Assembly (NCBI GenBank): GCA_044866005.1 | Contig: JBIOTN010000223.1 | Location: forward strand, 2,354 to 66,353 | Direction: 5' to 3' | Origin: Candidatus Rokuibacteriota bacterium | Lineage (GTDB): Bacteria > Methylomirabilota > Methylomirabilia > Rokubacteriales > DASRDR01 | Length of the DNA stretch: 64,000 nt | Shown: one piece after another, positions 3,047 to 53,546 of the stretch | Layout: each line of letters begins with the position of its first letter | Numbering within the stretch: position 1 is the first letter of the stretch | Program-made: the position numbers and the translations under genes | The notes under the pieces: generated by a model | Databases searched by the model: none | The model's input: only the letters and a program-made list of their open reading frames with translations | What the model was told of the DNA's origin: nothing

Positions 3047-4240
3047 CTATCGGCCCGGCTCCTGGAAGTCGCGAAGGATCCGACGGGCCACCACCATCCG
3101 GTGCACTTCGTCCGGGCCGTCGTAGATCCGTGCCGCGCGGGCCTCGCGATAGAAGCCCTCGAGCGGCGTGTCGGCCGAGATGCCGGCGGCGCCGTGAGCC
3201 TGGATCGCCCGATCGATGACGTCGATCAGGACCCGGGCGCCGAAGAACTTGATGAGCGAGATCTCGAGCCGCGCGTCGAGCTTCTGATCCATCTTCCACG
3301 CCGCGTGGAGCGTCATGAGCCGCGCCGCCTGGATCTCGGCGGCGGAATCGGCGATCCAGTTCTGGATCGTCTGCTTCTCCGCGAGCGCGGACCCGAAGGC
3401 CTCCCGCCGCGTCACGTGGCGACACATCAGCTCGAGGCTCCGCTGGGCGACGCCGATCCAGCGCATGCAGTGCTGGATGCGTCCCGGCCCGAGTCGGGCC
3501 TGCGCGATCTTGAAGCCCGCGCCGCGCGGGCCCAGGAGGTTGCCGGCCGGGACGCGGCAGTCCTCGTAGCGGATCTCGCAGTGCCCGCCGCGCGCCCGGA
3601 CGTGTCCCATGACGGGGACCTGGCGGACGATCCGGAAGCCCGGCGTGTCGGTCGGGACGATGATGAGGCTGAACCGGCCGTGGGGCCCGGCGTCGGGGTC
3701 GGTCCTGGCCATCACGATCGCGAACGCCGCGCCCACCGCGCCCGTGGTGAACCACTTGTGCCCGTTGATCACCCAGGTGTCGCCGGCGAGGACGGCCGTG
3801 GTCCGGAGGTCTGTCGGGTCCGCGCCCGAGACCTCCGGCTCCGTCATCGAGAAGCAGGAGCGGACCTCGCCGGCCACGTTGGGGCGGAGGTAGCGGCGCT
3901 TCTGCTCCTCGGTGCCGTAGAGGTGGAGGACCTCGCAGTTGCCGGCGTCCGGCGCCTGGCAGCCGAAGACGATCGGGCCGATCGGGCTGCGCCCGATGAT
4001 CTCGTTGACCAGGGCGAGGCCGACCACCCCGATCCCCATCCCGCCGACCTCCTCGGGCATGTGGGGCGCCCAGAGGCCGCGCGCCTTGACCCGCGCCTGG
4101 AGCGCGCGCAGCCGCTCGAGCGGGAGCCCTTCCCCCTCGTCCACCATCTCCCGCTCCGCCGGATAGACCTCGCGCTCCATGACGTCCGTCACGGCGGTCC
4201 GGATCTGGTCGAGCTCGGGCGGAATGCTGAAATCGATCAT
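3047..4240 (-). CDS. acyl-CoA dehydrogenase
   Basis: Start at the ATG 4238-4240 (MIDFSIPPELDQIRTAV...) with GAGGAGG upstream; the longer ORF in the track is an N-terminal over-extension. ACAD motifs: FGCQAPDAGN, TGAVGAAFAIVMART, YDGPDEVHRMVVAR at the C-terminus. Confidence 0.85.
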   Translation of the reverse strand: MIDFSIPPELDQIRTAVTDVMEREVYPAEREMVDEGEGLPLERLRALQARVKARGLWAPHMPEEVGGMGIGVVGLALVNEIIGRSPIGPIVFGCQAPDAGNCEVLHLYGTEEQKRRYLRPNVAGEVRSCFSMTEPEVSGADPTDLRTTAVLAGDTWVINGHKWFTTGAVGAAFAIVMARTDPDAGPHGRFSLIIVPTDTPGFRIVRQVPVMGHVRARGGHCEIRYEDCRVPAGNLLGPRGAGFKIAQARLGPGRIQHCMRWIGVAQRSLELMCRHVTRREAFGSALAEKQTIQNWIADSAAEIQAARLMTLHAAWKMDQKLDARLEISLIKFFGARVLIDVIDRAIQAHGAAGISADTPLEGFYREARAARIYDGPDEVHRMVVARRILRDFQEPGR

Positions 4241-4448
4241 GGAGGACGCCTCCTCGAGCGGGCCGCAGCGGTCTGGGCGGCCCCAGTATAGCCGAGCGCG
4301 GGCGAGCGCTGGCAGCGCGGACCGCGGCCGCGAGGCTCGCCCCGGCGGGGCCGCGCGTGTTTGGCGGCGCGCCGGATTTGCAGTAAGATCGGACGGCCGT
4401 GGGCCCGGGGCCGGCGCGCAGGCCGCCGCGTGCCCCGGTGGAGGTGAT

Positions 4449-5969
4449 GTGGGCCTAGCCATCTTCGACTTGCTGCGCGGGGGCGCCGCGCTCGCCGCGG
4501 TCGTCCTCGCGATCTCCGTCATCCGGACGGTCTGCCGGCGACCGCCCCTCCGGCGCCTGAGCCTCGCCCTCTCGCTCGCCGCCGCCGCCGGCGGCCTCGC
4601 CCTCTTCCGCTACCTCGTCCCGTCGAGCGCCGAGCGGCTCGCCCCGTACCTCTTCGTCGGCTACCTGTTCGCGCTGGCTTACACCGCCTTCAAGCTCGTC
4701 GAGGTGATCCTCCTCGACGTCGTCACGGTACGCCAGGGCGGCGCGCCGCCGCCCGCGATCCTGCGCGACATCGTCTCCGCCATGTTCGCGGCCCTGATGC
4801 TGGTCATGCTCCTCCGCGCCGGGCTCGGGGTCGACGTCACCACCCTCGTGGCCACCTCCGCGGCGCTCTCCATCGTGCTCGGCTTCGCGCTCCAGGAGAC
4901 CCTCGCCAACCTGTTCGCCGGCCTGGCCCTGATGATCGAGCGCCCGTTCGAGCCGGGCGACTGGGTGCGGTTCGGCGAGCGGGTGGGCCGGGTGAAGGAG
5001 GTGAGCTGGCGCGCCGTCAAGCTCCAGCTCCTCCGGCAGGAAGACTCCCTGGTCATCCCCAACAGCGTGGTGGCGAAGAGCGAGATCGTGAACCTGAGCC
5101 AGCCCACCCCCCTCCACGGCCAGTCCGTCGAGGTCGGCGTCGCCTACGGGGAGCCCCCGAACCGGGTCCGCCAGGTCCTCATCGACGCCGCCCTCGAGGT
5201 CGAGGGGGTGGCGCGGGAGCCGCGACCGCGCGCCGCCGTGCTCCGGTTCGACAATTTCGCGGTCGTCTACCGGCTGACCTACTGGATCCAGAGCTTCGCC
5301 CACGTCTACGACATCGAGGGCGAGGTCCTCGCCCACATCTGGTACGCCTTCCGTCGCCACGGCATCCAGATCCCCTTCCCCATCTCCGACGTGCACTGGC
5401 GGGACGCCGGCGTGGCGGAGAGCGCGGCGCGGCACCAGGAGCTCGCGCGCGTCGCCGGGCTGCTCCGGAGCGTGGACTTCCTCGCCGCGCTCACGCAGGA
5501 CGAGATCGACCGGCTGACCGCCGCGGTGCGGTTCGAGCCGTTCCCCGGCGGGATGGTCGTCGTCCGGCAAGGCGACGCGGGGGACAGCCTCTTCGTCATC
5601 GCCGCGGGGCGCGTCCAGGTGACCGCCCAGCCGCCGGGCGGCGGTGCGGAGCGCCTGATCGCGGTGATCGAGGCCGGCAACTACTTCGGCGAGATGTCGC
5701 TCCTGACCGGGGCGCCGCGCTCGGCGACCGTCCGGACCCTGGAGGACACGGAACTGCTCGTCCTGACCCGCGACGCCTTGCGGCCGCTCCTCGTCAGCGA
5801 CCCCGCCGCGGCGGAGCGGCTCTCGCAGACCCTGGCGAAGCGCAAGGCCGAGCGCGACGACACGCTGCAACCGGTGAGCGTGGAGTCCCCCGTGTCGGGC
5901 GGCGACGTCTCGCCGTTCCTGCTGAGCCGCATTCGCCGGTTCTTCGGCCTGCTCGGGGGCGAGAGCTGA
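4449..5969 (+). CDS. mechanosensitive channel MscS family protein with C-terminal cyclic-nucleotide-binding (cNMP) domain
   Basis: GTG start at 4449 preceded by GGAGGTGA. Three or more N-terminal TM helices. MscS beta-domain: LGFALQETLANLFAGLALMIERPFEPGDWV. C-terminal CAP-type cNMP-binding domain: FEPFPGGMVVVRQGDAGDSLFVIAAGRVQV...GNYFGEMSLLTGAPRSATVRT. Confidence 0.8.
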   Translation: MGLAIFDLLRGGAALAAVVLAISVIRTVCRRPPLRRLSLALSLAAAAGGLALFRYLVPSSAERLAPYLFVGYLFALAYTAFKLVEVILLDVVTVRQGGAPPPAILRDIVSAMFAALMLVMLLRAGLGVDVTTLVATSAALSIVLGFALQETLANLFAGLALMIERPFEPGDWVRFGERVGRVKEVSWRAVKLQLLRQEDSLVIPNSVVAKSEIVNLSQPTPLHGQSVEVGVAYGEPPNRVRQVLIDAALEVEGVAREPRPRAAVLRFDNFAVVYRLTYWIQSFAHVYDIEGEVLAHIWYAFRRHGIQIPFPISDVHWRDAGVAESAARHQELARVAGLLRSVDFLAALTQDEIDRLTAAVRFEPFPGGMVVVRQGDAGDSLFVIAAGRVQVTAQPPGGGAERLIAVIEAGNYFGEMSLLTGAPRSATVRTLEDTELLVLTRDALRPLLVSDPAAAERLSQTLAKRKAERDDTLQPVSVESPVSGGDVSPFLLSRIRRFFGLLGGES

Positions 5970-21869: not shown

Positions 21870-22577
21870 ATGGAGCCGCCGATCCTCGAGATCTCCGACC
21901 TGACCAAGCGCTTCGGCGGCGTCACGGCGGTGAGCCGGTGCTCGCTCGCGCTCACGCCCGGACGCATCTACGGCCTGATCGGGCCGAACGGCTCGGGCAA
22001 GACGACGCTGTTCAACTGCATCACCGGGCTCGTCGTGCGCGACGCCGGCACGATCCGCTTCCGCGGGCAGCGCGTGGACGGCCTCCCCTCGCACCGCGTC
22101 GCGGCGCTCGGGATCGGCCGCACCTTCCAGGTCATCCGGGTCTTCCCCGAGCTCACCGCGCTCGAGAACCTCCTCGTCGTCTCGCGCGGCGAGCGGGAGG
22201 CGGCGCTCCGCCGGGCCCGCGAGCTCCTCGCCTTCGTCCGGCTGGACGGGCTGGAGGCCGAGTACGCGGGCAACCTCTCCTACGGGCAGCAGAAGCTCCT
22301 CGAGTTCGTCCGCGTGCTGATGATCGACCCGGCCCTGATCCTGCTCGACGAGCCCGCCGCCGGCGTCAACCGCACGCTGCTGAACGACCTGCTCGCGGCC
22401 ATCCGGCGCCTGCGCGCCGAAGGGCGGACGATCCTGATCGTCGAGCACGACATGAAGGTCGTGATGGGACTCTGCGAACAGGTCTTCGTCCTGGACCAGG
22501 GGGAGAAGATCGCCGAGGGTCCGCCCGAGGCGATCCAGCGGGACGAGCGGGTCGTCGAGGCCTACTTTGGGCGCTGA
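21870..22577 (+). CDS. livG: branched-chain amino acid ABC transporter ATP-binding protein LivG
   Basis: Walker A GPNGSGKTT, ABC signature LSYGQQKLLEF, Walker B ILLDEPAAGV. Confidence 0.9.
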   Translation: MEPPILEISDLTKRFGGVTAVSRCSLALTPGRIYGLIGPNGSGKTTLFNCITGLVVRDAGTIRFRGQRVDGLPSHRVAALGIGRTFQVIRVFPELTALENLLVVSRGEREAALRRARELLAFVRLDGLEAEYAGNLSYGQQKLLEFVRVLMIDPALILLDEPAAGVNRTLLNDLLAAIRRLRAEGRTILIVEHDMKVVMGLCEQVFVLDQGEKIAEGPPEAIQRDERVVEAYFGR

Positions 22578-22704
22578 CGGGGCGGTGCGCGCGCCCTACC
22601 CGCGTCCGCTCGCGGAGGGCGCGGCGAAGGGAGAGGCCGCCTCCTGGCGGAGGCCCGCGAGCCCCACCCCCGCGCCCCGGCCGTCGCCGCCGGGAGGGCG
22701 GGCG

Positions 22705-24174
22705 ATGCCCGTCCTCGCGGGCGTCGGCGTCGCGGGGACGGCGACGCTCGCGCTCGGCCTGACCGTGGGCTCGCTCGGCTGGCCGCTCGTCCACGACGCG
22801 CCGATCATGCACTACGTCGCGGCGCGCCTTCTCGGCGGCGCGACGCCGTACCGCGACTTCTTCGACATGAACTTCCCCGGCGTCTACCTGGTCCACGCGC
22901 TCGGGCTCGCCCTCCTCGGTGGGGGCGATGCCGGCTTCCGGGCCCTCGACCTCCTGCTCCTCGGCGGCACGGTGGCCGGGCTCGCCGTCACGCTCGTGCC
23001 CTTCGGGCGCGGCGCCGTCGCCGCCGGCGCGGCGCTCTTCTGGCTCTACCACGTGGCGGGGGGCGCCTGGCGCGCCGGGCAGCGGGACCTGATCCTCTGT
23101 CTGCCGCTGGCCTGGATGACCGCGGCCGCCCTCGCCGACGTCGCGAGGCCACGGCTCGGCCGCCTCGCGCTGGCGGGCGCGGCCCTGGGGGCGGCGGTCT
23201 GGATCAAGCCCCACGCCCTCCTGCTCCTCCCGCTCCTCGCCGCCCTGGCCTGGCGGCGGCCGCCCGGCTCGCGGGCCGCGGCGGTCGCGGCGCTGGCCGG
23301 CGGCATCGCCGCGCCGGCCGCGGGCGTCGTCGGCTGGCTCGCCGCAGCCGGCGCCCTGCCGGCGTTCCTCGACATCGTCTGGCACTACCTCGTCCCGCTC
23401 TACAGCCGCCTCGGGCGGACCCCGGTGCTCGCCGCCCTCCTCACGCACGACGTCGGGCCGCCGATCGTGGCGGGGCTCGGGCTCTGGGCGGTCGGCGGCG
23501 GCGTCGCGCTCTGGCGCGGCGGGGAGCGCGGGGCGCGGCTTTCCGTGCTCGCGGCGGGCGTGCTCTACGGCGCGCTTCACTTCGTCGTCCAGGGCAAGGG
23601 CTGGGAATATCACCTTTACCCCCTGGCCCTGTTCGCGGTGGCCCTCGGGGCGGCGGGGTTCGGGACGGCGCTCGCCGGCCACCGGCCGCGCGCCGCGGGG
23701 GCGCTCCTCCTGGCGCTCGTCCTCACGGCCGGGGCGCTCGGGGCCAAGGGGAGCCGGAACGTCGAGTCGGACTGGATCCGGCAGAAGCACGCGCGCGCGC
23801 TCGCGGTGGCGGCCGCGCTCGAGCCCGTCGCCCGGGCCGGCCGGTCGATCCAGGTCCTGGACACGACCGACGGCGGCGTCCACGCGCTCTACCTCCTGCG
23901 CGCGCGCCAGCCGACCCGCTTCCTGTACGACTTCCACTTCTATCACGACGTCGAGCACCCGTACGTCCGCCGGCTCCGGGCCGAGCTCCTCGCCGGGCTC
24001 ACCGCGCGGCCGCCGGGCGCGGTCGTGCTCTTCGAGCGCGGCTGGCCGCGGGGCGACTACGAGCGGCTGCGCCGGTTCCCCGAGCTGGCCGCGTGGCTCG
24101 CCGCCGGCTACCATCTGGTCCACGAAGGCGACGGCTACCGCCTCTATCTGCCCGTGGCGCCGTCACCGGGATAA
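22705..24174 (+). CDS. polytopic membrane protein, putative GT-C-fold glycosyltransferase-like protein (inserted between livG and livF)
   Basis: ATG 22705 preceded by GGGAGGG. About 12 predicted TM helices. N-terminal periplasmic loop DAPIMHYVAARLLGGATPYRDFFDMNFPGVYLVHAL resembles the Asp-containing first loop of GT-C enzymes (ArnT/PMT/DUF2029-like). C-terminal soluble domain. Confidence 0.45.
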   Translation: MPVLAGVGVAGTATLALGLTVGSLGWPLVHDAPIMHYVAARLLGGATPYRDFFDMNFPGVYLVHALGLALLGGGDAGFRALDLLLLGGTVAGLAVTLVPFGRGAVAAGAALFWLYHVAGGAWRAGQRDLILCLPLAWMTAAALADVARPRLGRLALAGAALGAAVWIKPHALLLLPLLAALAWRRPPGSRAAAVAALAGGIAAPAAGVVGWLAAAGALPAFLDIVWHYLVPLYSRLGRTPVLAALLTHDVGPPIVAGLGLWAVGGGVALWRGGERGARLSVLAAGVLYGALHFVVQGKGWEYHLYPLALFAVALGAAGFGTALAGHRPRAAGALLLALVLTAGALGAKGSRNVESDWIRQKHARALAVAAALEPVARAGRSIQVLDTTDGGVHALYLLRARQPTRFLYDFHFYHDVEHPYVRRLRAELLAGLTARPPGAVVLFERGWPRGDYERLRRFPELAAWLAAGYHLVHEGDGYRLYLPVAPSPG

Positions 24175-24176
24175 CG

Positions 24177-24821
24177 ATGCGACGCGAGGCGATCAGCCGG
24201 GTCATCGCGGCCTACGACGATCCGATCATCCGCGCCTACTCGTGGGGGCGGTTCCTGATCCTGCGCCAGCGCTTCCTGGACGAGATCGGGCAGTACCTGC
24301 CGGAGGAGGGGACGATCCTGGACATCGGGTGCGGCTTCGGGCTCTTCTCCCTCTACTACGCGCAGCTCTTCCCGGCCGCCCGCTTCCGCGGGATCGACCT
24401 CGACGCGCGGCGCGTCGCGCTGGCCAGCGACGCGGCGCGGCGACTGGGCCTGACCAACACGAGCTACGCGGTGGGGGACGCGCGGGAGTACCGGGCGGAC
24501 GCCGAGCACGCCGCCGCGTACATGCTCGACATCGTGCACCACGTGCCGCCCGAGACCGTCCCGCCGCTCCTCAGCGAGCTCCACAAGGCGATCCGCCCCG
24601 GCGGCCGGCTGATCGTCAAGGACGTGGACACCCAGCCCGCCTACAAGCGCTGGTTCACGCACGCGCTGGACCTCCTCATGAGCCCGCGGAGCGTCATCCA
24701 CTACTGGCCGGCCGGCGAGCTGCAGGCCCTCCTCGAGCGCGTGGGCTTCCGGGTCTACCGCCACCTGATGGTGGACATCCTGCCGTACCCCCACGTGCTC
24801 TACGTGTGCCACCGGGACTGA
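24177..24821 (+). CDS. class I SAM-dependent methyltransferase
   Basis: ATG 24177 lies 3 nt after the stop of the upstream membrane protein. Motif I ILDIGCGFGLFSLYYA, motif post-I RFRGIDLD, motif II-like RPGGRLIVKD. Confidence 0.75.
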   Translation: MRREAISRVIAAYDDPIIRAYSWGRFLILRQRFLDEIGQYLPEEGTILDIGCGFGLFSLYYAQLFPAARFRGIDLDARRVALASDAARRLGLTNTSYAVGDAREYRADAEHAAAYMLDIVHHVPPETVPPLLSELHKAIRPGGRLIVKDVDTQPAYKRWFTHALDLLMSPRSVIHYWPAGELQALLERVGFRVYRHLMVDILPYPHVLYVCHRD

Positions 24822-24831
24822 CGACCGGCCC

Positions 24832-25554
24832 GTGAGCCCGCCCGCCCCGCTCCTGACGGTCGAGGACGTCCACGCCGGCTACGGCCGGACCCCGATCCTC
24901 CACGGCGTGAGCCTGAGCGTGCGGGCGCGCGAGGTCGTGGCGATCATCGGTCCGAACGGCGCCGGCAAGTCCACCGCCTTCAAGGTCATCGTGGGCTTCC
25001 TGCGTCCGCAGCAAGGACACGTTCGGTTCGACGGGGCGCCCATCACGGCCCTCCGCCCCGACGAGGTGCTGCGGCGGGGGCTCGCCTACGTGCCCCAGGG
25101 GCGTATCGTATTCCCGCAGATGACCGTGCTCGAGAATCTGGAGATGGGGGCCTACATCGAGCGCGACCGGGGGCGGATCGCCGAGGCCCTGGAGCGCGTG
25201 TACCGGCTCTTCCCCATCCTCCGCGAGCGCGGCCGGCAGAAGGCCGGCACGCTGTCGGGCGGGGAGCAGCAGATGCTCGCCATCGGGCGCGCCCTGATGA
25301 CGCAGCCGCGGCTGATCCTGCTCGACGAGCCGTCGCTCGGGTTGTCCCCGAAGTTCCTCGGGATCATCTTCGAGAAGATCGCCGAGCTGAAGGCGGCCGG
25401 CATGACGATGATGATCGTCGAGCAGAACGCGGTGAAGGCGCTCGCGGTGGCCGACCGGGGCTACGTGCTCGAGCTGGGGCGGAACCGGTTCGAGGGCCCC
25501 GGCCCCGCGCTCCTGGCGGATCCCGAAGTGAAGCGCCTCTACCTGGGCGGCTAG
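24832..25554 (+). CDS. livF: branched-chain amino acid ABC transporter ATP-binding protein LivF
   Basis: Walker A GPNGAGKST, signature LSGGEQQMLAIGRAL, Walker B LILLDEPSLGL. Typical LivF N-terminus LLTVEDVHAGYG. Confidence 0.9.
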   Translation: MSPPAPLLTVEDVHAGYGRTPILHGVSLSVRAREVVAIIGPNGAGKSTAFKVIVGFLRPQQGHVRFDGAPITALRPDEVLRRGLAYVPQGRIVFPQMTVLENLEMGAYIERDRGRIAEALERVYRLFPILRERGRQKAGTLSGGEQQMLAIGRALMTQPRLILLDEPSLGLSPKFLGIIFEKIAELKAAGMTMMIVEQNAVKALAVADRGYVLELGRNRFEGPGPALLADPEVKRLYLGG

Positions 25555-25559
25555 CGGCC

Positions 25560-25735
25560 GTGCCGATAAGCATCGCATCCCGGCGTCCTCGGTCGTCGGC
25601 GGCCCTCAACGTACAACCGCGTACGCCTCGGGCCGCCTCCTCCCTGCGTCCTGGGGCTGCTCGCTTCTCGGCCCGGCCGATCGCGGCCGTGCCGATAAGC
25701 ATCGCATCCCGGCGTCCTCGGAAGACGCCGTGAGG
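25560..25735. repeat. intergenic repeat family B, two tandem units starting GTGCCGATAAGCATCGCATCCCGGCGTCCTCGG (25560 and 25689); related copies at 39906-40135 and 63229-63320
   Basis: A 33-bp direct repeat lies 129 bp apart. The 39906 copy shares the flanking GTGCCGATAAGC(A/G)TCGCATCCCGGCGTCCT and GTCGTCGGCGGCCCTCAACGTACA(A/C)CCGCGTACGC modules plus a 56-bp extra segment. That extra segment is also found at 63240-63310. Confidence 0.8.
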
Positions 25736-25742
25736 CCGGAAC

Positions 25743-27404
25743 GTGCCGATTGACCTCGAAGCGATCCTCAACTCCGCGATGCCCCGCGGGCCGTCGGACC
25801 TGCACCTGCGCCCGTGGCAGCACCCCATCGTCCGGCTCAAGGGGCGCCTGCTGCCGCTGGAGGACTGGCCGCCGATCGGGCTGGAGGACCTCGAGGCGCT
25901 CAAGCGCCGCATCCTCTCCTCCGAGCAGCTCGCCTACCTCGGCAAGTTCGGCGGCGTCAACCGGCCCCTCACGCTGGCGGGCCTGGGGCGCTTCCGGCTG
26001 ACGGTGTTCCACGCCCGCGGCATGCCGTGCATGGCGCTCCGAGCGCTGGCGCGCGAGATCCCCACGCTGGACGAGCTGAACCTGCCGCCCGTGGTCAGCC
26101 GCCTGGCCATGGAGCGGCGCGGCCTCATCCTCATCACCGGCCCCGCCGGCTCCGGGAAGTCCACGACGCTCGCCGCGATGGTGAACCTCATGAACCTCCA
26201 CCGCACCGAGCACATCGTCACGGTCGAGGACCCCATCGAGTACGTCTTCGAGAACCACACCTGCTACATCACCCAGCGCGAGATCGGGCTCGACGCCCCG
26301 AGCTACGCCCTGGCGCTCCGTCTGGTGCTGCGGCAGGATCCGAACGTGATCGTGATCGGCGAGATGCGGGATGCCGAGACGTTTCGCGCCGTCCTGACCC
26401 TGGCCCAGACGGGGCACCTCGTCCTCTCCACGCTGCACACGGGCTCGGCCATCGACACGGTCAACCGCATCATCTCGGAGTTTCCGGAGCACCGCGAAGG
26501 CTCCATCCGCGCCCAGCTCGCGCACGTGCTCAAGGGCCTGGTCTGCCAGCGGCTCGTCGAGCGAGCGGACGGCACGGGGCTGATCCCGGCGTGCGAGATC
26601 CTCGTCACCACGTCCAGCATCTACCGCGCCATCCTGGAGCGGGACCTCACCTCCCGCATCCCCCAGATTCTCGCGCGCGGGCGGGACCTCTTCGGCATGC
26701 AGACGATGGACCAGTGCGTGCTGGACTACTTCCTCCAGGGGCTCATCACGGAGGCGACGGCGATCCGTGCGGCGAACTCACCGATGGACTTCGAGGTCGA
26801 GCTGCGCCGCGCCCGGCAGGAACAGCGGCTGGAGGAGCTGGGGGCGCAGCAGGCGCCGCGCGCCGCCGCGCGCATGGAGGCGATCCTCGTCCTCGAGGTC
26901 GTCGGGATGACGGATCTGCTCGTCTCGCACGGCGATCAGCGCTTCCGGGAGTTCACGGAGCGGATGGAGGCCCAGCTGGGGGCCATCGCCAAGGAGTACC
27001 GCGCGCGGGCCATCGAGAAGCACCTCGACGGCTTCCTCCTGACGTTCCCCAACGTGGACTGGGCCGTCCTGGCCATTCGCGCCATCTTCGCGCGCCTGTC
27101 CGAGTTCAACCAGCTCTCCGAGATCGAGGTGGCCTTCCGCGGGGCCCTCCACTACGGCAGCACGTGGGTCGATCCGCACTCGAACCGGGTCGGCGCGGCG
27201 GTTCACAAGGCCTTCCGGGTCTGCAACGCGATCGCGGCGCCGGATCTCTGGCAGGCCGTGCGCCCGAAGGAGAAGGACGTCGTGGTGGCGACGGAAGAGG
27301 CTCGCGAGATGCTGATCCCCTACAACGTCTCGTCACGGCCCCTCGGCGGGGTGCCGCTCAAGGGCTTCGAGGGCGTGCACCACCTCTTCGAGCTCGACAT
27401 CTGA
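25743..27404 (+). CDS. PilT/PilU-type type IV pilus retraction ATPase fused to a C-terminal class III nucleotidyl-cyclase homology (CHD-like) domain
   Basis: GTG start. N-terminal ~350 aa: Walker A GPAGSGKSTTLAAM, Asp box HIVTVEDPIEYVF, Walker B DPNVIVIGEMRD, His box GHLVLSTLHTGSA, C-motif SIYRAILERD. From about aa 365 (ILVLEVVGMTDLL ... KHLDGFLLTFPN ... AFRGALHYGSTWVDPHSNRVGAAVHKAFRVCNAIAAPDLW) the sequence aligns with the adenylyl/guanylyl cyclase catalytic domain. The ORF is continuous. Confidence 0.8.
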   Translation: MPIDLEAILNSAMPRGPSDLHLRPWQHPIVRLKGRLLPLEDWPPIGLEDLEALKRRILSSEQLAYLGKFGGVNRPLTLAGLGRFRLTVFHARGMPCMALRALAREIPTLDELNLPPVVSRLAMERRGLILITGPAGSGKSTTLAAMVNLMNLHRTEHIVTVEDPIEYVFENHTCYITQREIGLDAPSYALALRLVLRQDPNVIVIGEMRDAETFRAVLTLAQTGHLVLSTLHTGSAIDTVNRIISEFPEHREGSIRAQLAHVLKGLVCQRLVERADGTGLIPACEILVTTSSIYRAILERDLTSRIPQILARGRDLFGMQTMDQCVLDYFLQGLITEATAIRAANSPMDFEVELRRARQEQRLEELGAQQAPRAAARMEAILVLEVVGMTDLLVSHGDQRFREFTERMEAQLGAIAKEYRARAIEKHLDGFLLTFPNVDWAVLAIRAIFARLSEFNQLSEIEVAFRGALHYGSTWVDPHSNRVGAAVHKAFRVCNAIAAPDLWQAVRPKEKDVVVATEEAREMLIPYNVSSRPLGGVPLKGFEGVHHLFELDI

Positions 27405-27411
27405 GCCCGGC

Positions 27412-28161
27412 GTGACCATCCGGGCGGTCACGTTCGACTTCTGGGGGACGCTCCTCTTCGATCCGCCCGCCACCGACGACCGCCACAAGCCGAAGCGGCT
27501 CGCGGACTTTGCGGCCATCCTGGCGGGGGCCGGCGTGGCGGCGCCCCCGGCGGCGCTCGAGCGCGCCTACGTGGATTCCGCGAACTTCCTGCGTCAGGTG
27601 TGGCTACGCGACCGGGACGTTCCGGTCGAGCAGCACGTGCGGGCGATCCTCCTGGGGGTCGACCCCGCCCTGGCGCGCCGGCTGTCGTCCGACACGCTGA
27701 CGGCGCTCGTCGACGCGTATGCGCGCCCCGCGCTCCTGGCGCCCCCGGCGGTGGCCGAGGGCGCGCGCGCGACGCTGGAGGCCGTCGCGGGGCGCGGCTA
27801 CACGCTCTGCGTGGTGTCCAACACGATGCGGACCCCCGGGACGATCCTCCGCGAGATCCTGCGGCACTACGGCCTGCTCGAATTCTTCTCGCACCTGACG
27901 TTCTCGGACGAGTGCGGCGTGCGGAAGCCGGACCCCGAGATCTTCCGTCGCACGCTCGCGGCCGCCGGCGTCCCGGCCGCGGCGGCGGTCCACGTGGGCG
28001 ACGATCCGATCCTCGACGTCGAAGGCGCGCGCGCGGCCGGGATGCGGGTGATCCAGGTCACGGCCAGCCGAGCGCCGTGGTTCGGAAGCCGGAAGCCGCA
28101 CGCGGCGATCCCGAAGCTGTCGGCGGTCCCGGAGGCCCTCGACCGGCTCGAGCACCGCTAG
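27412..28161 (+). CDS. HAD-superfamily hydrolase (subfamily IA)
   Basis: GTG start 8 nt after the PilT-cyclase stop. Motif I VTFDFWGTLL, motif II VVSNT, motif III K...(D/E) GVRKPDPEIF, motif IV VGDDPILDVEGARAAGM. Confidence 0.7.
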   Translation: MTIRAVTFDFWGTLLFDPPATDDRHKPKRLADFAAILAGAGVAAPPAALERAYVDSANFLRQVWLRDRDVPVEQHVRAILLGVDPALARRLSSDTLTALVDAYARPALLAPPAVAEGARATLEAVAGRGYTLCVVSNTMRTPGTILREILRHYGLLEFFSHLTFSDECGVRKPDPEIFRRTLAAAGVPAAAAVHVGDDPILDVEGARAAGMRVIQVTASRAPWFGSRKPHAAIPKLSAVPEALDRLEHR

Positions 28162-28163
28162 GG

Positions 28164-28640
28164 CTATACGGTACACGCGCCCCCGATCGTCGCAGTACAG
28201 CCCACCGCGCCTTCGGCGAAGGTCACCCCCGTAAGCTCGTCACTGAAGACCTCGACGTTACAGAGGGTCGTCAGGAGCGATGTCGCGGCGCCGGCGCTGT
28301 AGCCGACCACCACGGTCGAGATCTGCCAGCAGCCCGGGCGAAGCTCGGCGCTGTTCGGAAAGGTGACCAGGCCCCCCTGCTGGATCACCTCGGCGGGGGC
28401 CACCTGGCGCGCGTCGCCCGCTGCCATGGCCCCGACCTGGGAACCCCCTTGCGGGGCCCCGAGCCACGTGCCCGCCCAGGTGAGCTCGAGGAGATCGTAG
28501 GTGGCGGGCGAGCTGCCGATCCGAACCTCGAGCTTCAGCTTCCCGCCGCCGGGCACGTAAAAGCCGCTCCGTCCACATCCCAGCGCCGGAAGCGCGAGCG
28601 TGCAGGCAAGCAGAGCCAGCCGCCACGTGACGAGCTTCAT
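28164..28640 (-). CDS. lipoprotein of unknown function (paralogue of 28675-29163)
   Basis: Lipobox LPALGC. Shares GGLVTFP.S..LRPGCW....V.....A..S.L..LC..E.F....TGV.F.EG..GC....GGAC with its neighbour. Confidence 0.5.
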   Translation of the reverse strand: MKLVTWRLALLACTLALPALGCGRSGFYVPGGGKLKLEVRIGSSPATYDLLELTWAGTWLGAPQGGSQVGAMAAGDARQVAPAEVIQQGGLVTFPNSAELRPGCWQISTVVVGYSAGAATSLLTTLCNVEVFSDELTGVTFAEGAVGCTATIGGACTV

Positions 28641-28674
28641 GCACCGCTCCTACGAGGGGCGCGGCCCCCTGTGG

Positions 28675-29163
28675 CTAGGAACACGACGCGCCCCCCACGA
28701 GCGGCGCGCAGCCATCGAGCCCTTCGGTGAACTTCACCCTGGTGACGACCCCGGCAAAGATCTCCAGCTGGCAGAGCATGGAAAAGGACGGGGCGCCGTT
28801 CCGGGTGGTGGCGACGGCAAGCTCCCAGCAGCCCTGGCGCAAGGCCGGACTGGCCGGAAAGGTCACGAGCCCCCCGTTCTGCGCCGCCCCCGCCGGGGTC
28901 AGCTGGATCGTGCCTTCCCCGCTCGTCGCGCCATCGTCATCGGTGGTCCCGGTCAGCCATGCCCCGGCCCAGCTCACCTTGACCTGGTTCGGCACGGGGA
29001 TCGACGGGTCCAGCTGGACTTCGATCCCGACCCGCGGGGGATCGAGGTCCACGACGGCGGTCGGGCCACAGCCGGGCGCCCCCATGCCCAGGAGGGGGAC
29101 GATCCAGAACCACCTCCAGGACCGCCGCCCGCCGGCGTGCCCCGCCTCACCAGAGGCTGACAT
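28675..29163 (-). CDS. lipoprotein of unknown function (paralogue of 28164-28640)
   Basis: Start at ATG 29161-29163 (MSASGEAGHAGGRRSWRWFWIVPLLGMGAPGC, lipobox MGAPGC). Conserved GGLVTFPASPALRQGCWELAV...LCQLEIFAGVVTRVKFTEGLDGC. Confidence 0.5.
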   Translation of the reverse strand: MSASGEAGHAGGRRSWRWFWIVPLLGMGAPGCGPTAVVDLDPPRVGIEVQLDPSIPVPNQVKVSWAGAWLTGTTDDDGATSGEGTIQLTPAGAAQNGGLVTFPASPALRQGCWELAVATTRNGAPSFSMLCQLEIFAGVVTRVKFTEGLDGCAPLVGGASCS

Positions 29164-30421
29164 TCGCTTGCAGCTCGACATACCCGTTCCTCTTGACCAC
29201 CGCGAGGTGAGTAGGGCTCAGGCGGAGCGCCCGCGGCCCCTCGGCCGTCTCGAAATGAAAGGACGCCGTGCTGACCGGCAGGGGGGGCAGGGTCAGCGAC
29301 GGCGCCACGTTGATGTGAATCGGCAGCGCCACCTCGTATCCGGAGACGCGGAAGACCGGCTGAATGCTGGTCGGCTCCACCGTCACGCGGATGGCGGTCT
29401 GCCCCTGAAAGCGTCCAGGCGCTGGCTGTCCATGCGAGGGGTGGAGCTGGGGGACGACGACGAGCGTCGTCACGGCCCGCACGTCGGCGCTGGTCTCGAG
29501 GTTGGCGTTGAAGCCGACGTTACACCAGTGGGCCTCGACGTCCCCGGTGATGCGCACCCGGGCCGGGCTGATGCCAAACCGCAGGTCCTTGACCTTGGCG
29601 GTCCAGTCGGAGCTGCAGATCGTCGTGCATTGAGTCCCGAACGGCGTCCACGTGCACGCTTTGTAGGCGTAATGGCCCTTGAACTGGATCGGCTCGACTT
29701 TGTCCGCCAGCTCGTTGAACGCGGACTCGTACACCTTGAGGACGCCCCTCCCCGTCGGGACGAGGCTGCCCAGGTCGCTCCCGGCCAGCCCGACATCCGC
29801 CGCGCGGGCCAGGCGGAAGACGGGCGCGGGGGGAGCGAATCCCAGGTCGACGGTGATCACCAGCTTCCCGGGCAAATACTGGGGTGTCGCGCTGACGAGG
29901 CGCGCGATGAGGGTGCGAGTGCCCCCGTCCGGGAGCGACAGGGTGAGCTCCTGGGCCTCGATGGGCGTGGACACGCTGTACAGTCTGGCCACGTCCACCT
30001 GCGTGATGACGGCGCCGCCGACCTGGACCGGCACCGCGAACGTCCCCACGTTGATCCGCAAGCGATGGCTCGCGGCGTCGAAGCTCACGGAGGCCGGGAC
30101 CGTCCGGGTCTCCGTGCTCGGTTGGCCTCCCACGACGGCGTTCACGGTCGCGGTAAAGGTCATCGCCCCTTCGGCGAGCGTGAACGCGGCGTTCGTCACC
30201 GTCCACTGCCAGGGTACGGGGGCGCCCCCGCCCGCGGGCTGATGGAGGCCGGCGTTCGCGAGGGATCCCAGCCGCCCGATCAGGCCGTTCAGGGTCACCT
30301 GAGAGACCTCGAGCGTCGCGTTCTGGGCCGTCGGCGCCGGCGCCGATCCTGGCTGGGCCACACCGGCGGCGGGAAGGACCAGCGCGGCGCAAAGGAGGAG
30401 GACCGCCAACCGTGCTCTCAT
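29147..30421 (-). CDS. secreted protein of unknown function (424 aa), first gene of a three-gene secreted/lipoprotein cluster
   Basis: Start at ATG 30419-30421 (MRARLAVLLLCAALVLPAAGVAQP). Cys pairs: YKACTWTPFGTQCTTICSSDW, HWCNVGF. Overlaps the next gene's start by 17 nt. No family recognised. Confidence 0.5.
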   Translation of the reverse strand: MRARLAVLLLCAALVLPAAGVAQPGSAPAPTAQNATLEVSQVTLNGLIGRLGSLANAGLHQPAGGGAPVPWQWTVTNAAFTLAEGAMTFTATVNAVVGGQPSTETRTVPASVSFDAASHRLRINVGTFAVPVQVGGAVITQVDVARLYSVSTPIEAQELTLSLPDGGTRTLIARLVSATPQYLPGKLVITVDLGFAPPAPVFRLARAADVGLAGSDLGSLVPTGRGVLKVYESAFNELADKVEPIQFKGHYAYKACTWTPFGTQCTTICSSDWTAKVKDLRFGISPARVRITGDVEAHWCNVGFNANLETSADVRAVTTLVVVPQLHPSHGQPAPGRFQGQTAIRVTVEPTSIQPVFRVSGYEVALPIHINVAPSLTLPPLPVSTASFHFETAEGPRALRLSPTHLAVVKRNGYVELQANVSLW

Positions 30422-30595
30422 TGCCGACTCTCCCGGGGCCACCGGTCGGCCCGTGATGCGCGTCGCCGTCGATGGGACATCGAGATCGAGGGGTGGATTC
30501 GACGCTAGATCACGGTGGCGAACCTGTCAAGGAGCGGGGACTCCGCCGTCGCGAGCCGATCGTGGCGCGAGGCCGTCGCGGCCGGTGGAGCCGGC

Positions 30596-36711: not shown

Positions 36712-39285
36712 GTGACTCTCGCGCGCTGGCTCCGCACCCATCGGGGCCTCGCGGCCTTCGCCGCGGGGGCCTTCCTCACGCTGGTCGCCCTCGCGGTGGT
36801 CGGGTACCTCGTGCTCTCGGACCAGCGCCGCTCGGCGCGCGTCCTCGCCGCGGCGCTCTCCCAGGCGCTGGCGCGCGAGGTGCGCATCGGGCGTGTGACC
36901 GACCTCAACACGCAGCGCGTCGTGATGCGCGGCGTCGAGTTGCCCCGGGAAGGGGGCTGGCCGGCGAGGGTCACGGCCGACCGCGTGGAGGCGACCGGGC
37001 CGCTCCTGGCGGCGGCGCGCGGGGAGGCGGCGCCCATCCGGCTCACCGTGAGCCGGCCCGTCGTGGAGCTCGGGCCCGGGGGCCCGGCCGCGGGCCTGGC
37101 CGCGCTGGAGACGGCGCGAACGGGCCTGGCGGGGTTTCTCCGCGGACCGATGCTGCTCGATCTCGCGCTGACGGGTGGGACCGCGCAGCACGGGGGCGAG
37201 GTCACGGTATTCGATCTGACCCTCCGCAAGGGACGCGGGGAGGCCAGGGGCGAGCTGGTCGCGCGCGACGCCCGCGGCGCGCCCCTGGTGGTCACGCTCG
37301 AGGGCCGGCTCGAGGGCGACACGGCGCGCCTCCTCGCGAGCACGCGCGGGCGCGCGGCGCCGCTCGCGGCCTGGCTGCCCGCCGCCAGCGCCGCGGCCCT
37401 CGGCGACCGCGACCTCGACGTGCGCCTGACGCTCGACCTGGCCCCCGGGGGGCAGCTCCTGGCCCGCGGGTCGCTCGCGCTCGGCGACGTCATCGGGGCG
37501 GAAGGGGCGGCGACCGTCCGGGATGGCCTCGTCGAGCTCAGCCTCGCGCGCACGGTGGCCGATCTGGCCTTCGCCGCCTCGGTGGCGCAGCTCGGCTGGC
37601 AGCCGGCGGGGCGCGTCGAGCTGACCGACGTGACGGCGGCGTGGCGGCCCGAGGCAGGCGTGCGGCCCACCGCGCGCGCCACCCTCCGGCTCGCCTCGCT
37701 CGGGCTGCCCGCCGCGGCCGTCGGCGCGGAGGTGGCCGCCGACGGCGTGGACGGTCGCGTCACGCTCGAGCCGGCCGGGGCCGGCTTCGCGCTGGACGGG
37801 GACCTCGGGGCGAGCCACGTGCGGGTCGGGGGCCTCGACGTGGCGCCGGCGCGGACGCGCTACCGCGTGACGCTCGACGCGCAGGGGGGCGTGAGCCGGG
37901 CCGACCTCGACGGCCTGAGCGCGCGCATCGAGGAGGCCGCGCTCCAGGGGCGGCTCCACTACGACGTCGCGGCGCGGCGACTCGAGGGACAGCTCGGCGG
38001 CGAGGACGTGGAGGCCGCCGGGCTCGCCCGGCGGCTCGCGCCGGGCTGGCTCGGCCCGCGCGACCGCCTCCGGCTGACCGGGCTCCGCGTCACGCTGACC
38101 GGCCTCGATCCCGTGGAGCGGCGCGCGGGCGCCGCGCGGCTCGAGGCGCGCGGCCTCCGGCTCGGCCGGCCGGACGGCGAGCTTGCGAGCGGCCCCGCGA
38201 CGGCCCGGGCCGACCTCGCGCGGAACGGGGCCACGGTCGCGCTCACCCTCGATGGCGTCACGGGGTCGCTTCCCGTGTTGAGCGGCAGCCTCCCGCGGGT
38301 CGTGGGCTCGCTCGAGCTCGGCCGCGGTGCGGACGGCGCGCTCGCGGCCGAGCGCGCGACGCTCGCCGCCCGCGACCGCCAGGGGACGGAGCTTCTCACC
38401 GCGGACCTCGTGCGCGCCGCGCCGGCCGGGCGTTTGCGGCTCTCCGCGCGCGCGCCGGCGCTCGAGCGGCTGGGGGGACTCTGGCCCGCGGTGAGCCGCC
38501 GGGTGAACGGATCGGCGCGGCTCGACGTCGAACTGCCAGGGCCCGGGCTCGAGGCGGCGGACGGCCGGCTCGCGCTGACGGTGCCGGAGGCCGAGCTCTG
38601 GGACGGGAAAGTGGCGGTGCGCGACCTGGAGGCCGATCTGCCCGTGCGGCGCGGCACCGCGATGCCCGGGGAGCCGCCGTGGGGACGCCTGGACGTCGGG
38701 GAGCTGATCGCCTACGGCGTCGTGGCGCGTGACGTGACGACGCCGGCGCGCGTCTGGAGGGACCGCCTGAGCTTGAACGACCTGAGCTACGCTCTGTATT
38801 CTGGTGACGGCAAGGGCTGGAGCGAGATCGAGCTCCAGCCCGCGGCGCTCGCCGCGCGCGGCCAGCTCACCGGGGAGCGGGTTCGGGTCGAGGAGTTCAT
38901 CGGCGCCTACGGCATTCGGGGCGGGACCATGACGGGCCTGCTCCGCTACAGCGTGGACTACGAGTATCGCGCGGGCCATCTCGGCGTGAACGGCCGCTTC
39001 GAGGTGCCGCGCGGGGGGACGGTGAACATCGAGCTCTTGAACCGGCTGCTGGTGCACGCCCAGGCGGACCCCACGGGCATCCTCCGCCAGACGCTCGAGA
39101 ACCTGACCGCCTTCGAGTACAAGGACGCGGCGGCCGAGGTGCACTCCGCGGCGGACGACCTGCGGGTGAGCTTGACCCTGCGAGGCCGGGAGCGGCTCCT
39201 GATCCTGCCGCCCAAGGTACGGGAGATCAACATCCGGAACATGCCGCTGTCGTTCGTGGCGCGGCAGTTCCCCGGATTGCACTGA
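36712..39285 (+). CDS. large membrane-anchored AsmA-like/YdbH-like protein (putative intermembrane lipid-transport protein)
   Basis: GTG 36712 preceded by GGAGG. Single N-terminal TM (GLAAFAAGAFLTLVALAVVGYLVL). ~850 aa, Ala/Leu/Arg-rich beta-rich body. C-terminal region (RYSVDYEYRAGHLGVNGRFEVPRGGTVNIELLNRLL...REINIRNMPLSF) resembles the YdbH C-terminal domain. Followed by a YnbE/YdbL-like gene, as in the ydbH-ynbE-ydbL operon. Confidence 0.5.
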   Translation: MTLARWLRTHRGLAAFAAGAFLTLVALAVVGYLVLSDQRRSARVLAAALSQALAREVRIGRVTDLNTQRVVMRGVELPREGGWPARVTADRVEATGPLLAAARGEAAPIRLTVSRPVVELGPGGPAAGLAALETARTGLAGFLRGPMLLDLALTGGTAQHGGEVTVFDLTLRKGRGEARGELVARDARGAPLVVTLEGRLEGDTARLLASTRGRAAPLAAWLPAASAAALGDRDLDVRLTLDLAPGGQLLARGSLALGDVIGAEGAATVRDGLVELSLARTVADLAFAASVAQLGWQPAGRVELTDVTAAWRPEAGVRPTARATLRLASLGLPAAAVGAEVAADGVDGRVTLEPAGAGFALDGDLGASHVRVGGLDVAPARTRYRVTLDAQGGVSRADLDGLSARIEEAALQGRLHYDVAARRLEGQLGGEDVEAAGLARRLAPGWLGPRDRLRLTGLRVTLTGLDPVERRAGAARLEARGLRLGRPDGELASGPATARADLARNGATVALTLDGVTGSLPVLSGSLPRVVGSLELGRGADGALAAERATLAARDRQGTELLTADLVRAAPAGRLRLSARAPALERLGGLWPAVSRRVNGSARLDVELPGPGLEAADGRLALTVPEAELWDGKVAVRDLEADLPVRRGTAMPGEPPWGRLDVGELIAYGVVARDVTTPARVWRDRLSLNDLSYALYSGDGKGWSEIELQPAALAARGQLTGERVRVEEFIGAYGIRGGTMTGLLRYSVDYEYRAGHLGVNGRFEVPRGGTVNIELLNRLLVHAQADPTGILRQTLENLTAFEYKDAAAEVHSAADDLRVSLTLRGRERLLILPPKVREINIRNMPLSFVARQFPGLH

Positions 39286-52541: not shown

Positions 52542-53546
52542 ATGAGCGACTCGACGACGAACGGCGCGCAGCGGATCACGCCGCCGGCCCTCGACGCCGC
52601 CCTCCGGCGCGGCGAGCGCCTGGCCGTCCTCGACGTCCGCCGGCGCGAGGCGTGGACCTCGGATCCCGCGCGGATTCCCGGCGCGATCTGGCTCCCGCTC
52701 GAAGAGGTCCCGCAGCGGGCGCGCGAGCTGCCGGCCGACGCTCACCTGGTCGTCTACTGCTCCTGACCCGGCGAAGCGACCAGTGCCCGGGTGGCACGGT
52801 GGCTGTCGGGGCAGGGGTTCCCCCGCGTCTCCGTCCTGAAGGGCGGTCTCGCCGGGTGGCGTGACGCGGGGTTCGCCGTGGACCGGCTCGAGGGCGAGCC
52901 GCCGGCGCTCGGCGAGCCGGGAGACGGCCGCGGTCGGCTCGAGCACGGCCGGGCGTCGTTCCTGCCCAGCCTGGCCGACCGGTACCTCCTCGACGGGGCG
53001 CTCCCCAGCCGACGCCGCCTGACCACGCTCTTCGTCGACATCGCCGGCTCGACGCGGCTTCTCGCCCACTATCCGCCCGAGAAGGTCCTCGGCGTCGTCC
53101 AGCGCTTCATGCGGCTCGTCACGGACGTCGCCATCGCCTACTGCGGCGACGTGAAAGACTTCGAGGGCGACGGCGCGCTGCTCTACTTCGAGTCCACGGC
53201 GGAGGCCGCGGCGGCGGCGTTCGCGATCCGCGGGGCCCTCGCCACCGGGAGCTGTGACACCCAGCACCCCGTCACGGCCCGCATGAGCCTGACGACGGGC
53301 GAGGTCGTCGTGGGGATCGTGGGCTCGACGATGCGCCAGGCGATCACGCTCATCGGCCCGAGCGTCAGCATCGGCGCCCGGCTGCTCAAGCAGGTCGACC
53401 CCGGGGGGATCATCGCGAGCGGCGAGGTCGTGGAGGCGCTCCGCTCCGAAGCGTCGGCGCTCGCCGCGGAGTTCCGGCTCCTCGACCCCGCCTTCGAGGT
53501 GCAAGGCGGCGACGGCATCACCGTGGCGAGCTACGTCACGGCCTGA
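52542..53546 (+). CDS. rhodanese domain - class III adenylate/guanylate cyclase fusion, interrupted by in-frame TGA at 52764-52766 (possible selenocysteine, pseudogene, or sequencing error)
   Basis: Own translation: ...LAVLDVRRREAWTSDPARIPGAIWLPLEEVPQRARELPADAHLVVYCS-TGA-PGEATSARVARWLSGQGFPRVSVLKGGLAGWRDAGFAV... The rhodanese fold continues in the same frame across the TGA. The CHD domain follows: TLFVDIAGSTRLL, CGDVKDFEGDGALLYFES, RMSLTTGEVVVGIVGS, GPSVSIGARLL...GIIASGEVVEAL. The ORF track splits it into 52542-52766 and 52791-53546. Confidence 0.6.

Follow-up and report, generated by a model that had tools for sequence, protein, structure and literature searches.

The ATPases of the PilT family act as hexamers, a helix, AIRNLIRE, being regarded as the PilT signature, and the class III nucleotidyl cyclases form their active sites only at the interfaces of head-to-tail dimers. 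Pseudomonas couples its pilus signalling in trans to the class III cyclase CyaB, by way of Pil-Chp and cyclic AMP (cAMP) (PMC12632253). We describe here a gene that joins a protein of the first kind to a domain of the second, located in a 64,000-nucleotide stretch of the Candidatus Rokuibacteriota contig JBIOTN010000223.1 (positions 2,354 to 66,353 of the forward strand; the whole of this stretch is called the window below). It is an open reading frame (ORF) of 553 amino acids (aa) with a GTG start, 25743..27404 on the + strand, and encodes a PilT/PilU-type ATPase that is followed, after a linker, by a divergent class III cyclase homology domain (CHD). A preliminary description of the locus had proposed an in-frame fusion of this kind, which is confirmed, with one frame used throughout. 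The architecture is restricted to one lineage and had not been annotated before, and both of its domains come from well-known superfamilies.

There is no stop codon or change of frame at the PilT-CHD junction in the window sequence, and the G+C content at third codon positions (GC3) of the single frame is 0.97 in the PilT part, 0.94 in the linker and 0.95 in the CHD. The start at the GTG codon at 25743 is consistent with the V-I-D-L-E consensus N-terminus of the family. An identical 553-aa protein with the same neighbouring genes is present in three independent assemblies (two metagenome-assembled genomes from NCBI and one Logan run), and when the same domain order was sought elsewhere, as the preliminary description had recommended, more than 30 clusters (at 90% identity) were found to share the full-length architecture. 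The proteins in these clusters are 543-563 aa long and 66-77% identical with a query coverage of 99-100%; they are drawn from JGI, ENA, NCBI and Logan data, and the named sources are all Candidatus Rokuibacteriota, Rokubacteria or Methylomirabilota. Such a gene could also arise as an artefact, either by chimeric assembly or by a frameshift or read-through that joins two genes, and chimeras involving this type of CHD do occur: P0001, a 323-aa protein known from one sequence only, on an NCBI contig of 1.8 kb, has an ABC-permease N-terminus followed by a fusion-type CHD nearly identical to that of P0007, with the junction inside the linker helix. We considered P0001 as a second (ABC-permease-CHD) architecture, set it aside as a probable chimeric contig and did not use it as evidence. 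The PilT-CHD fusion, however, has the same sequence and the same neighbours in three assemblies, more than 30 clusters that cover virtually the whole query, a GC3 of ~0.95 in a single frame over the junction and a presence in four of the ~185,000 GTDB species genomes, all of which leaves an artefact with next to no chance of being the explanation. For practical purposes a chimeric assembly or a frameshift can be ruled out, the fusion is indeed one gene as had been proposed, and it is a stable, lineage-specific gene of Rokubacteria/Methylomirabilota. The gene and its parts are arranged as follows.

25732..25735, + strand: Shine-Dalgarno-like GAGG, 7 nt 5′ of the GTG start, read from the sequence
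25743..27404, + strand: coding sequence of the PilT-CHD fusion including the stop codon (single frame, identical protein in 3 assemblies, >30 full-length homologues)
25743..26042, + strand: PilT N-terminal domain, aa 1-100 (TIGR01420 from aa 5; alignment to Geobacter metallireducens PilT from aa 6)
26043..26777, + strand: PilT ATPase core, aa 101-345 (Pfam T2SSE at aa 118-276; family-invariant motifs)
26139-26165, + strand: Walker A, aa 133-141, GPAGSGKST
26211-26243, + strand: Asp box, aa 157-167, HIVTVEDPIEY
26337-26372, + strand: Walker B with catalytic Glu207, aa 199-210, DPNVIVIGEMRD
26412-26441, + strand: His box, aa 224-233, GHLVLSTLHT
26778..26870, + strand: linker, aa 346-376 (predicted helix, then a variable loop of low confidence)
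26871..27401, + strand: divergent class III CHD, aa 377-553

The fusion is narrowly distributed. An exhaustive HMMER search of 1.84 billion representative proteins gave 167 matches, in which the fusion family makes up one cluster at 50% identity and no other PilT-CHD protein is found, and a search of the literature gave no description of a PilT-cyclase fusion, the co-occurrences of 'adenylate cyclase' being references to bacterial two-hybrid assays; the earlier remark that no such architecture was known is therefore upheld on both counts. In public databases the fusion proteins are labelled 'PilT/PilU family type 4a pilus ATPase' or 'twitching motility protein PilT'. A word-indexed homologue search with the C-terminal domain alone returned 3 fragments, and the family was found with the full-length query. 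Mean pairwise identity within the family is 76% for the ATPase core, 75% for the CHD, 58% for the linker, which also has insertions and deletions, and 56% for the PilT N-terminal domain. The closely similar values for the CHD and the ATPase core indicate that both domains are under comparable purifying selection.

The assignment of the last ~190 aa to the cyclase fold needed independent testing because the Pfam Guanylate_cyc model (PF00211) finds no match in this protein even at E <= 1, whether the whole sequence or the C-terminal 203 aa is searched; a Pfam check on both halves, which had been suggested, thus succeeds for the first half (T2SSE) and fails for the second. When the C-terminal domain was compared with PDB sequences by phmmer, the CHD of Mycobacterium tuberculosis Rv1900c was matched (1YBT, E = 2e-4; ~21-23% identity), and a profile built from 26 family members matched cyclases only (Rv1900c and four Ma1120 entries, E = 2e-4 to 8e-3), with the match taking in the terminal LKGF.G strand. 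Alignment of the family profile to seven Pfam-certified CHDs with HHalign gave a probability of 97.3% and an E-value of 1.7e-11 over 167 columns, and 24 of the 60 nearest phmmer relatives outside the fusion family are members of Pfam Guanylate_cyc (best E-value 7e-23). An alignment-based AlphaFold2 (AF2) model of the C-terminal domain has a predicted local distance difference test score (pLDDT) of 89 and a predicted fold of the cyclase type, although the alignment contained canonical CHDs, which favours a cyclase-like model and means that the model is not independent of the profile evidence. A single-sequence AlphaFold model of the full protein (pLDDT 34) was not interpreted. With five agreeing lines of evidence the C-terminal domain is a class III CHD, and the proposed cyclase fold is supported by the profile-to-PDB and profile-profile comparisons, by the Pfam membership of its relatives and by the predicted fold; profile searches do find CHD homology here. 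That the domain is instead some other palm-fold enzyme, for example a GGDEF diguanylate cyclase, is almost certainly wrong: the sequence profiles match CHDs only, there is no GG(D/E)EF motif in the C-terminal domain, and the CHD motifs are present, namely DGF, RxG, the G..V(H/N)..R segment and the C-terminal LKG strand.

The N-terminal part is matched by the NCBIfam model TIGR01420 (PilT/PilU family type IVa pilus ATPase) over aa 5-348, with a score of 365.8 bits against a cut-off of 319.1 and a span of positions 2-342 of the 343 in the model, and Pfam T2SSE is matched at aa 118-276. Its best solved relative is PilT of Geobacter metallireducens (6OJX, E = 3.7e-86, aligned over its full length), followed by other PilT and PilU structures, with PilB, GspE and DotB far weaker. 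Among 31 family members there is little or no variation in the Walker A motif, the Asp box, the Walker B motif with its catalytic Glu or the His box. The first ~350 aa had been credited with every hallmark of PilT, which is true of the four ATPase motifs and of the TIGR01420 score and untrue of the signature helix, since the AIRNLIRE position, as aligned to G. metallireducens PilT, reads S-IYRAILER in this protein and VFRAILEP in the family consensus. The nearest unfused paralogues are 365-400 aa long and ~55% identical, have TIQRCIEDP at this position and are encoded by orphan genes without pilus neighbours. Because AIRNLIRE is absent from the fusion and from its unfused kin, the motor half is not demonstrably a canonical retraction motor; it belongs to a clade of PilT paralogues and, judged by its motifs, is catalytically intact. 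We note that many of the proteins P0038-P0087, from Armatimonadetes, Victivallales and metagenomes, are 'double-length' members of the PilT family (712-773 aa, ~450-500 bits), and these may be tandem PilT fusions.

The active site of the CHD was mapped by alignment to Rv1900c, Ma1120 and ~150 relatives, with 31 members of the fusion family compared, and seven positions were considered.

26895-26897, + strand: codon of Glu385, metal site 1
27015-27017, + strand: codon of Glu425, Lys position
27027-27029, + strand: codon of Asp429, metal site 2
Asn481: second specificity position of the CHD
27204-27206, + strand: codon of His488, Asn position
27216-27218, + strand: codon of Arg492
27360-27362, + strand: codon of Lys540

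The first metal site is occupied by an invariant Glu (Glu385) in the fusion family, where essentially all of the ~150 relatives aligned there have Asp, so the change from Asp to Glu is confined to the PilT-fused family. At metal site 2 the residue is Asp429, with Glu in two of the 31 members. The residue that aligns with the substrate-specifying Lys is Glu425, which is invariant, and not Lys426 as had been supposed; at the second specificity position the family has Asn, Lys or Gln, and with Glu425 this makes up neither canonical pair. The transition-state Asn is replaced, as had been recognized, and its place is taken by the invariant His488, the same replacement being found in Rv1900c and many other relatives. 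(In the closest group of CHD-like relatives this position is Leu.) Arg492, the transition-state Arg, and Lys540, the phosphate-binding Lys in the LKG strand, are both invariant, so that five of the seven positions do not vary at all and a sixth is only ever Asp or Glu. The preliminary description had thus seen that the Asn was lost, had missed the Glu at metal site 1 and had not recognized Glu425, and so understated how unusual the site is; its warning of a possible loss of catalysis or change of specificity is apt.

Several of these substitutions have counterparts in cyclases that have been studied. The specificity pair is Lys/Asp in adenylyl cyclases and Glu with Cys, Ser, Thr, His, Ala or Gly in guanylyl cyclases (PMC4215837), and the latter typically have Glu in place of the Lys (PMC4215837; PMC4886424). 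Ma1120 has Ala at the Asn position and is active nonetheless, activity being abolished when the Asn is put back, and a Lys to Glu change in Ma1120 moves its preference toward GTP (PMC4215837). Rv1900c likewise lacks the transition-state Asn (PMC4215837; PMC4886424). Taken together, Ma1120 and Rv1900c indicate that loss of the Asn is tolerated in active cyclases. The residues of the pocket are compatible with a cyclase of altered specificity, probably slow or regulated, and fit a nucleotide-binding pseudo-cyclase equally.

The two halves are connected by a predicted helix of ~22 residues (aa 347-368 in the AF2 model of the C-terminal domain) and a loop that has a pLDDT of 55 (model residues 21-30) and differs among family members in both sequence and length. 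A variable loop of low confidence favours a flexible tether, and the model therefore argues for a linker of this sort rather than a rigid signalling helix that depends on its register. In the wider CHD subfamily a sensor-type module (HEAT, STAND NTPase, receiver, FHA or two transmembrane helices) always precedes the C-terminal CHD, and by analogy the PilT ring would occupy the input position of the fusion and the CHD the output position. This wider CHD-like subfamily, which comprises P0124-P0127 and others of the 167 matches, is largely missed by Pfam.

The reading that we tentatively favour, although we would put it at somewhat less than an even chance, is that the protein is a hexameric motor of the PilT-paralogue clade whose C-terminal CHD serves as its output, binding a nucleoside triphosphate (NTP) and metal and probably cyclizing it with a non-canonical base preference. 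Combining a hexameric motor with cyclase sites that are dimeric leads us to expect six tethered CHDs per hexamer, which would form as many as three head-to-tail dimers. The ATPase ring would be the input: its nucleotide state, its conformation or its docking to the pilus platform would set the pairing of neighbouring CHDs, and this pairing would set the amount of cyclic nucleotide (cNMP) made. Binding of NTP with metal in the CHD pocket is expected because the acidic pair of Glu385 and Asp429 is kept together with Arg492 and Lys540, and the bound NTP would most likely be cyclized slowly or under regulation. Glu425 suggests a specificity that is relaxed or directed to a base other than adenine, as in guanylyl cyclases, and the product might be read by cNMP receptors such as a cNMP-gated MscS channel that is also encoded in the window.

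A number of observations weigh against this proposal. No pilus genes are present in the 64-kb window, their absence nearby having been pointed out before, or in six homologous contexts; pilT genes, however, are often unlinked from other pilus genes. Twitching-motility genes have been reported across Rokubacteria genomes (PMC5712423), so a pilus machine may exist elsewhere in the genome. The motor is without the canonical AIRNLIRE, which makes a role at a pilus itself tentative, and the variable linker loop, with its insertions and deletions, makes a rigid coupling through helix register unlikely. Within the CHD, Pfam is silent and the AF2 model leans on the canonical CHDs in its alignment; three canonical residues are changed (Asp to Glu, Lys to Glu and Asn to His) and the second specificity position is variable. 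The first of these changes is found in every family member, at a site where Asp is otherwise universal, and the metal-binding aspartates of class III cyclases have been called indispensable (PMC4886424).

The changes at the metal, Lys, Asn and second specificity positions and the missing Pfam match are likewise arguments for a pseudo-cyclase, that is, a non-catalytic CHD that regulates the PilT ring as a nucleotide-binding and/or dimerization module, and this explanation is nearly as likely as the output cyclase. The pairing of protomers could then bias the conformation of the hexamer, or the CHD could be the input, sensing ATP, GTP or cNMP, with the motor as the output. Ligand binding would account for the strongly conserved pocket just as readily as catalysis. 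On the other hand, the acidic pair is kept along with Arg492 and Lys540, while sites that have lost activity usually drift; some active cyclases have no Asn at this position; and in every related architecture the CHD occupies the C-terminal output position. The favoured output-cyclase reading and the pseudo-cyclase are inseparable by sequence analysis.

The fusion gene lies within a block whose synteny is kept across the lineage. A Liv-type ABC transporter operon, interrupted by genes for a membrane protein and a methyltransferase, lies upstream, and downstream are genes for a HAD-IA phosphatase, an acyl-CoA synthetase, a B12-radical SAM enzyme, an amidohydrolase, an acyl-CoA dehydrogenase and a protein of ~850 aa; the window contains no second PilT-like gene. 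Three other genes of the window bear on the discussion of the fusion.

27412..28161, + strand: HAD-IA phosphatase gene (Pfam Hydrolase and HAD_2), 7 nt past the fusion stop codon (gap 27405-27411)
4179-5969, + strand: MscS-type mechanosensitive channel with a C-terminal cNMP_binding domain (E = 5e-21)
52791-53546, + strand: second cyclase gene, 251 aa (Pfam Guanylate_cyc, 28.7 bits against a cut-off of 21.9)

The HAD gene directly follows the fusion as had been described, although the gap between 27405 and 27411 is of 7 nt and not 8. It adjoins the fusion in four of six distinct contexts, overlapping the fusion stop codon in two, and is absent beside P0034 and P0010; only generic HAD-IA models are matched above their cut-offs. 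It is a frequent neighbour and possibly co-transcribed. We rejected the idea that it is a demonstrated functional or operon partner, given that only generic HAD-IA models are matched and that adjacency holds in four of six contexts, and treat it as a matter of synteny.

Both the cNMP-binding MscS channel and the second cyclase that had been reported in the window are present, so that cNMP signalling is in use. The 'elaborate' cNMP repertoire of the preliminary description is plausible to this extent, with the connection to the fusion being one of association only. A gene for a cNMP-binding MscS channel of this type is also found close to the fusion homologue in L010. The second cyclase cross-matches the PADLOC models for PycC, the pyrimidine cyclase of Pycsar anti-phage systems, with an E-value of 7.5e-12, and it can be asked whether the fused CHD is likewise a PycC and its gene part of a defence system. 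This is very improbable. PADLOC gives no defence-system match for the fused CHD or for the HAD protein, and the absence of a PycC match for the fused CHD has a positive control in the matches of the second cyclase; furthermore, there is no cNMP-binding effector adjacent to the fusion gene, and the genes around it are of housekeeping type and keep their synteny throughout the lineage.

Some further features of the region may be noted. The Liv operon is interrupted at 22567-24821 (+ strand), between the livG-like and livF-like ATPase genes, by genes for a membrane protein of ~490-720 aa and a SAM methyltransferase, an arrangement that is kept in five related contexts; the membrane protein has no Pfam match here and a weak match to the PMT_2 glycosyltransferase model in L011. 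The intergenic region upstream of the fusion gene contains a 129-bp direct duplication (25546-25601 and 25675-25730) with a 39-nt exact core, GCGGCCGTGCCGATAAGCATCGCATCCCGGCGTCCTCGG, of which the otherwise identical assembly L002 has one copy, so that the gap there is 59 nt as against 188 nt in the window. We considered a riboswitch in this repeat and rejected it, Rfam giving only a chance-level match to Mg-II (16.5 bits against a gathering threshold of 40, E = 0.92). At 28164-30442 (- strand) there are three consecutive ORFs of 158, 168 and ~425-431 aa that have lipoprotein-like N-termini and no Pfam match; these are shared by the closest relatives only and are absent from L008 and L009. The conserved protein of ~850 aa (36712-39285, + strand), which also lacks a Pfam match, is encoded after the acyl-CoA dehydrogenase gene in every related contig that was examined.

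The source organisms are uncultured soil bacteria and the cyclase may be inactive, but a fusion of this kind could tie motor activity directly to second-messenger signalling, and as a covalent union of motor and cyclase it would offer a minimal, tractable system in which to ask if a hexameric motor's state directly governs second-messenger output, or the reverse. An entire subfamily of CHDs escapes Pfam and the fusion proteins are labelled only as 'PilT', and surveys of domain architecture have thus missed the combination. The Glu found without exception at metal site 1 of the fusion family also bears on the minimal catalytic requirements of class III cyclases. A bolder proposal is that the protein is a mechanochemical transducer in one polypeptide, in which the conformational or ATPase cycle of the motor directly gates the pairing of its own CHDs and load or engagement is converted to a pulse of cNMP without a chemosensory relay; the product could be cGMP or a non-canonical cNMP in view of the Glu385/Glu425 pocket. 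We regard this as unlikely, although, if true, it would be a new coupling of a secretion-superfamily ATPase to the synthesis of a second messenger.

Among known proteins, PilT of G. metallireducens (6OJX) resembles the fusion over the full length of the alignment and in all four ATPase motifs, which are intact; the fusion differs from it by the ~200 additional C-terminal residues that form the CHD, by IYRAILER in the place of AIRNLIRE and by the lack of pilus genes close by. Rv1900c (LipJ; 1YBT/1YBU) has a CHD that is fused to an alpha/beta-hydrolase, as opposed to the motor ATPase of the present protein, and it has Asp at metal site 1 where the fused CHD has Glu385. The adenylyl cyclase Ma1120 of Mycobacterium avium (4WP3 and related entries), which gives the second-best profile match, is a stand-alone catalytic domain and in its wild-type form has the Asp/Asp metal pair and the Lys/Asp specificity pair, unlike the fused CHD in each of these respects. 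The class III cyclase-like ATP-binding protein of P. aeruginosa (6YII) is also among the structural matches, though a poorer one than the true cyclases, and is a precedent for an outcome in which a cyclase-like protein binds nucleotide; its partner domain is a transcriptional regulator and not a PilT ATPase. In terms of function, the closest analogue would seem to be the Pil-Chp/CyaB/cAMP route of P. aeruginosa, a multi-protein relay in which the mechanosensing step is still debated. There the coupling is made in trans by a chemosensory relay (PilJ, ChpA and PilG), whereas in the fusion the motor and the cyclase domain are parts of one polypeptide.

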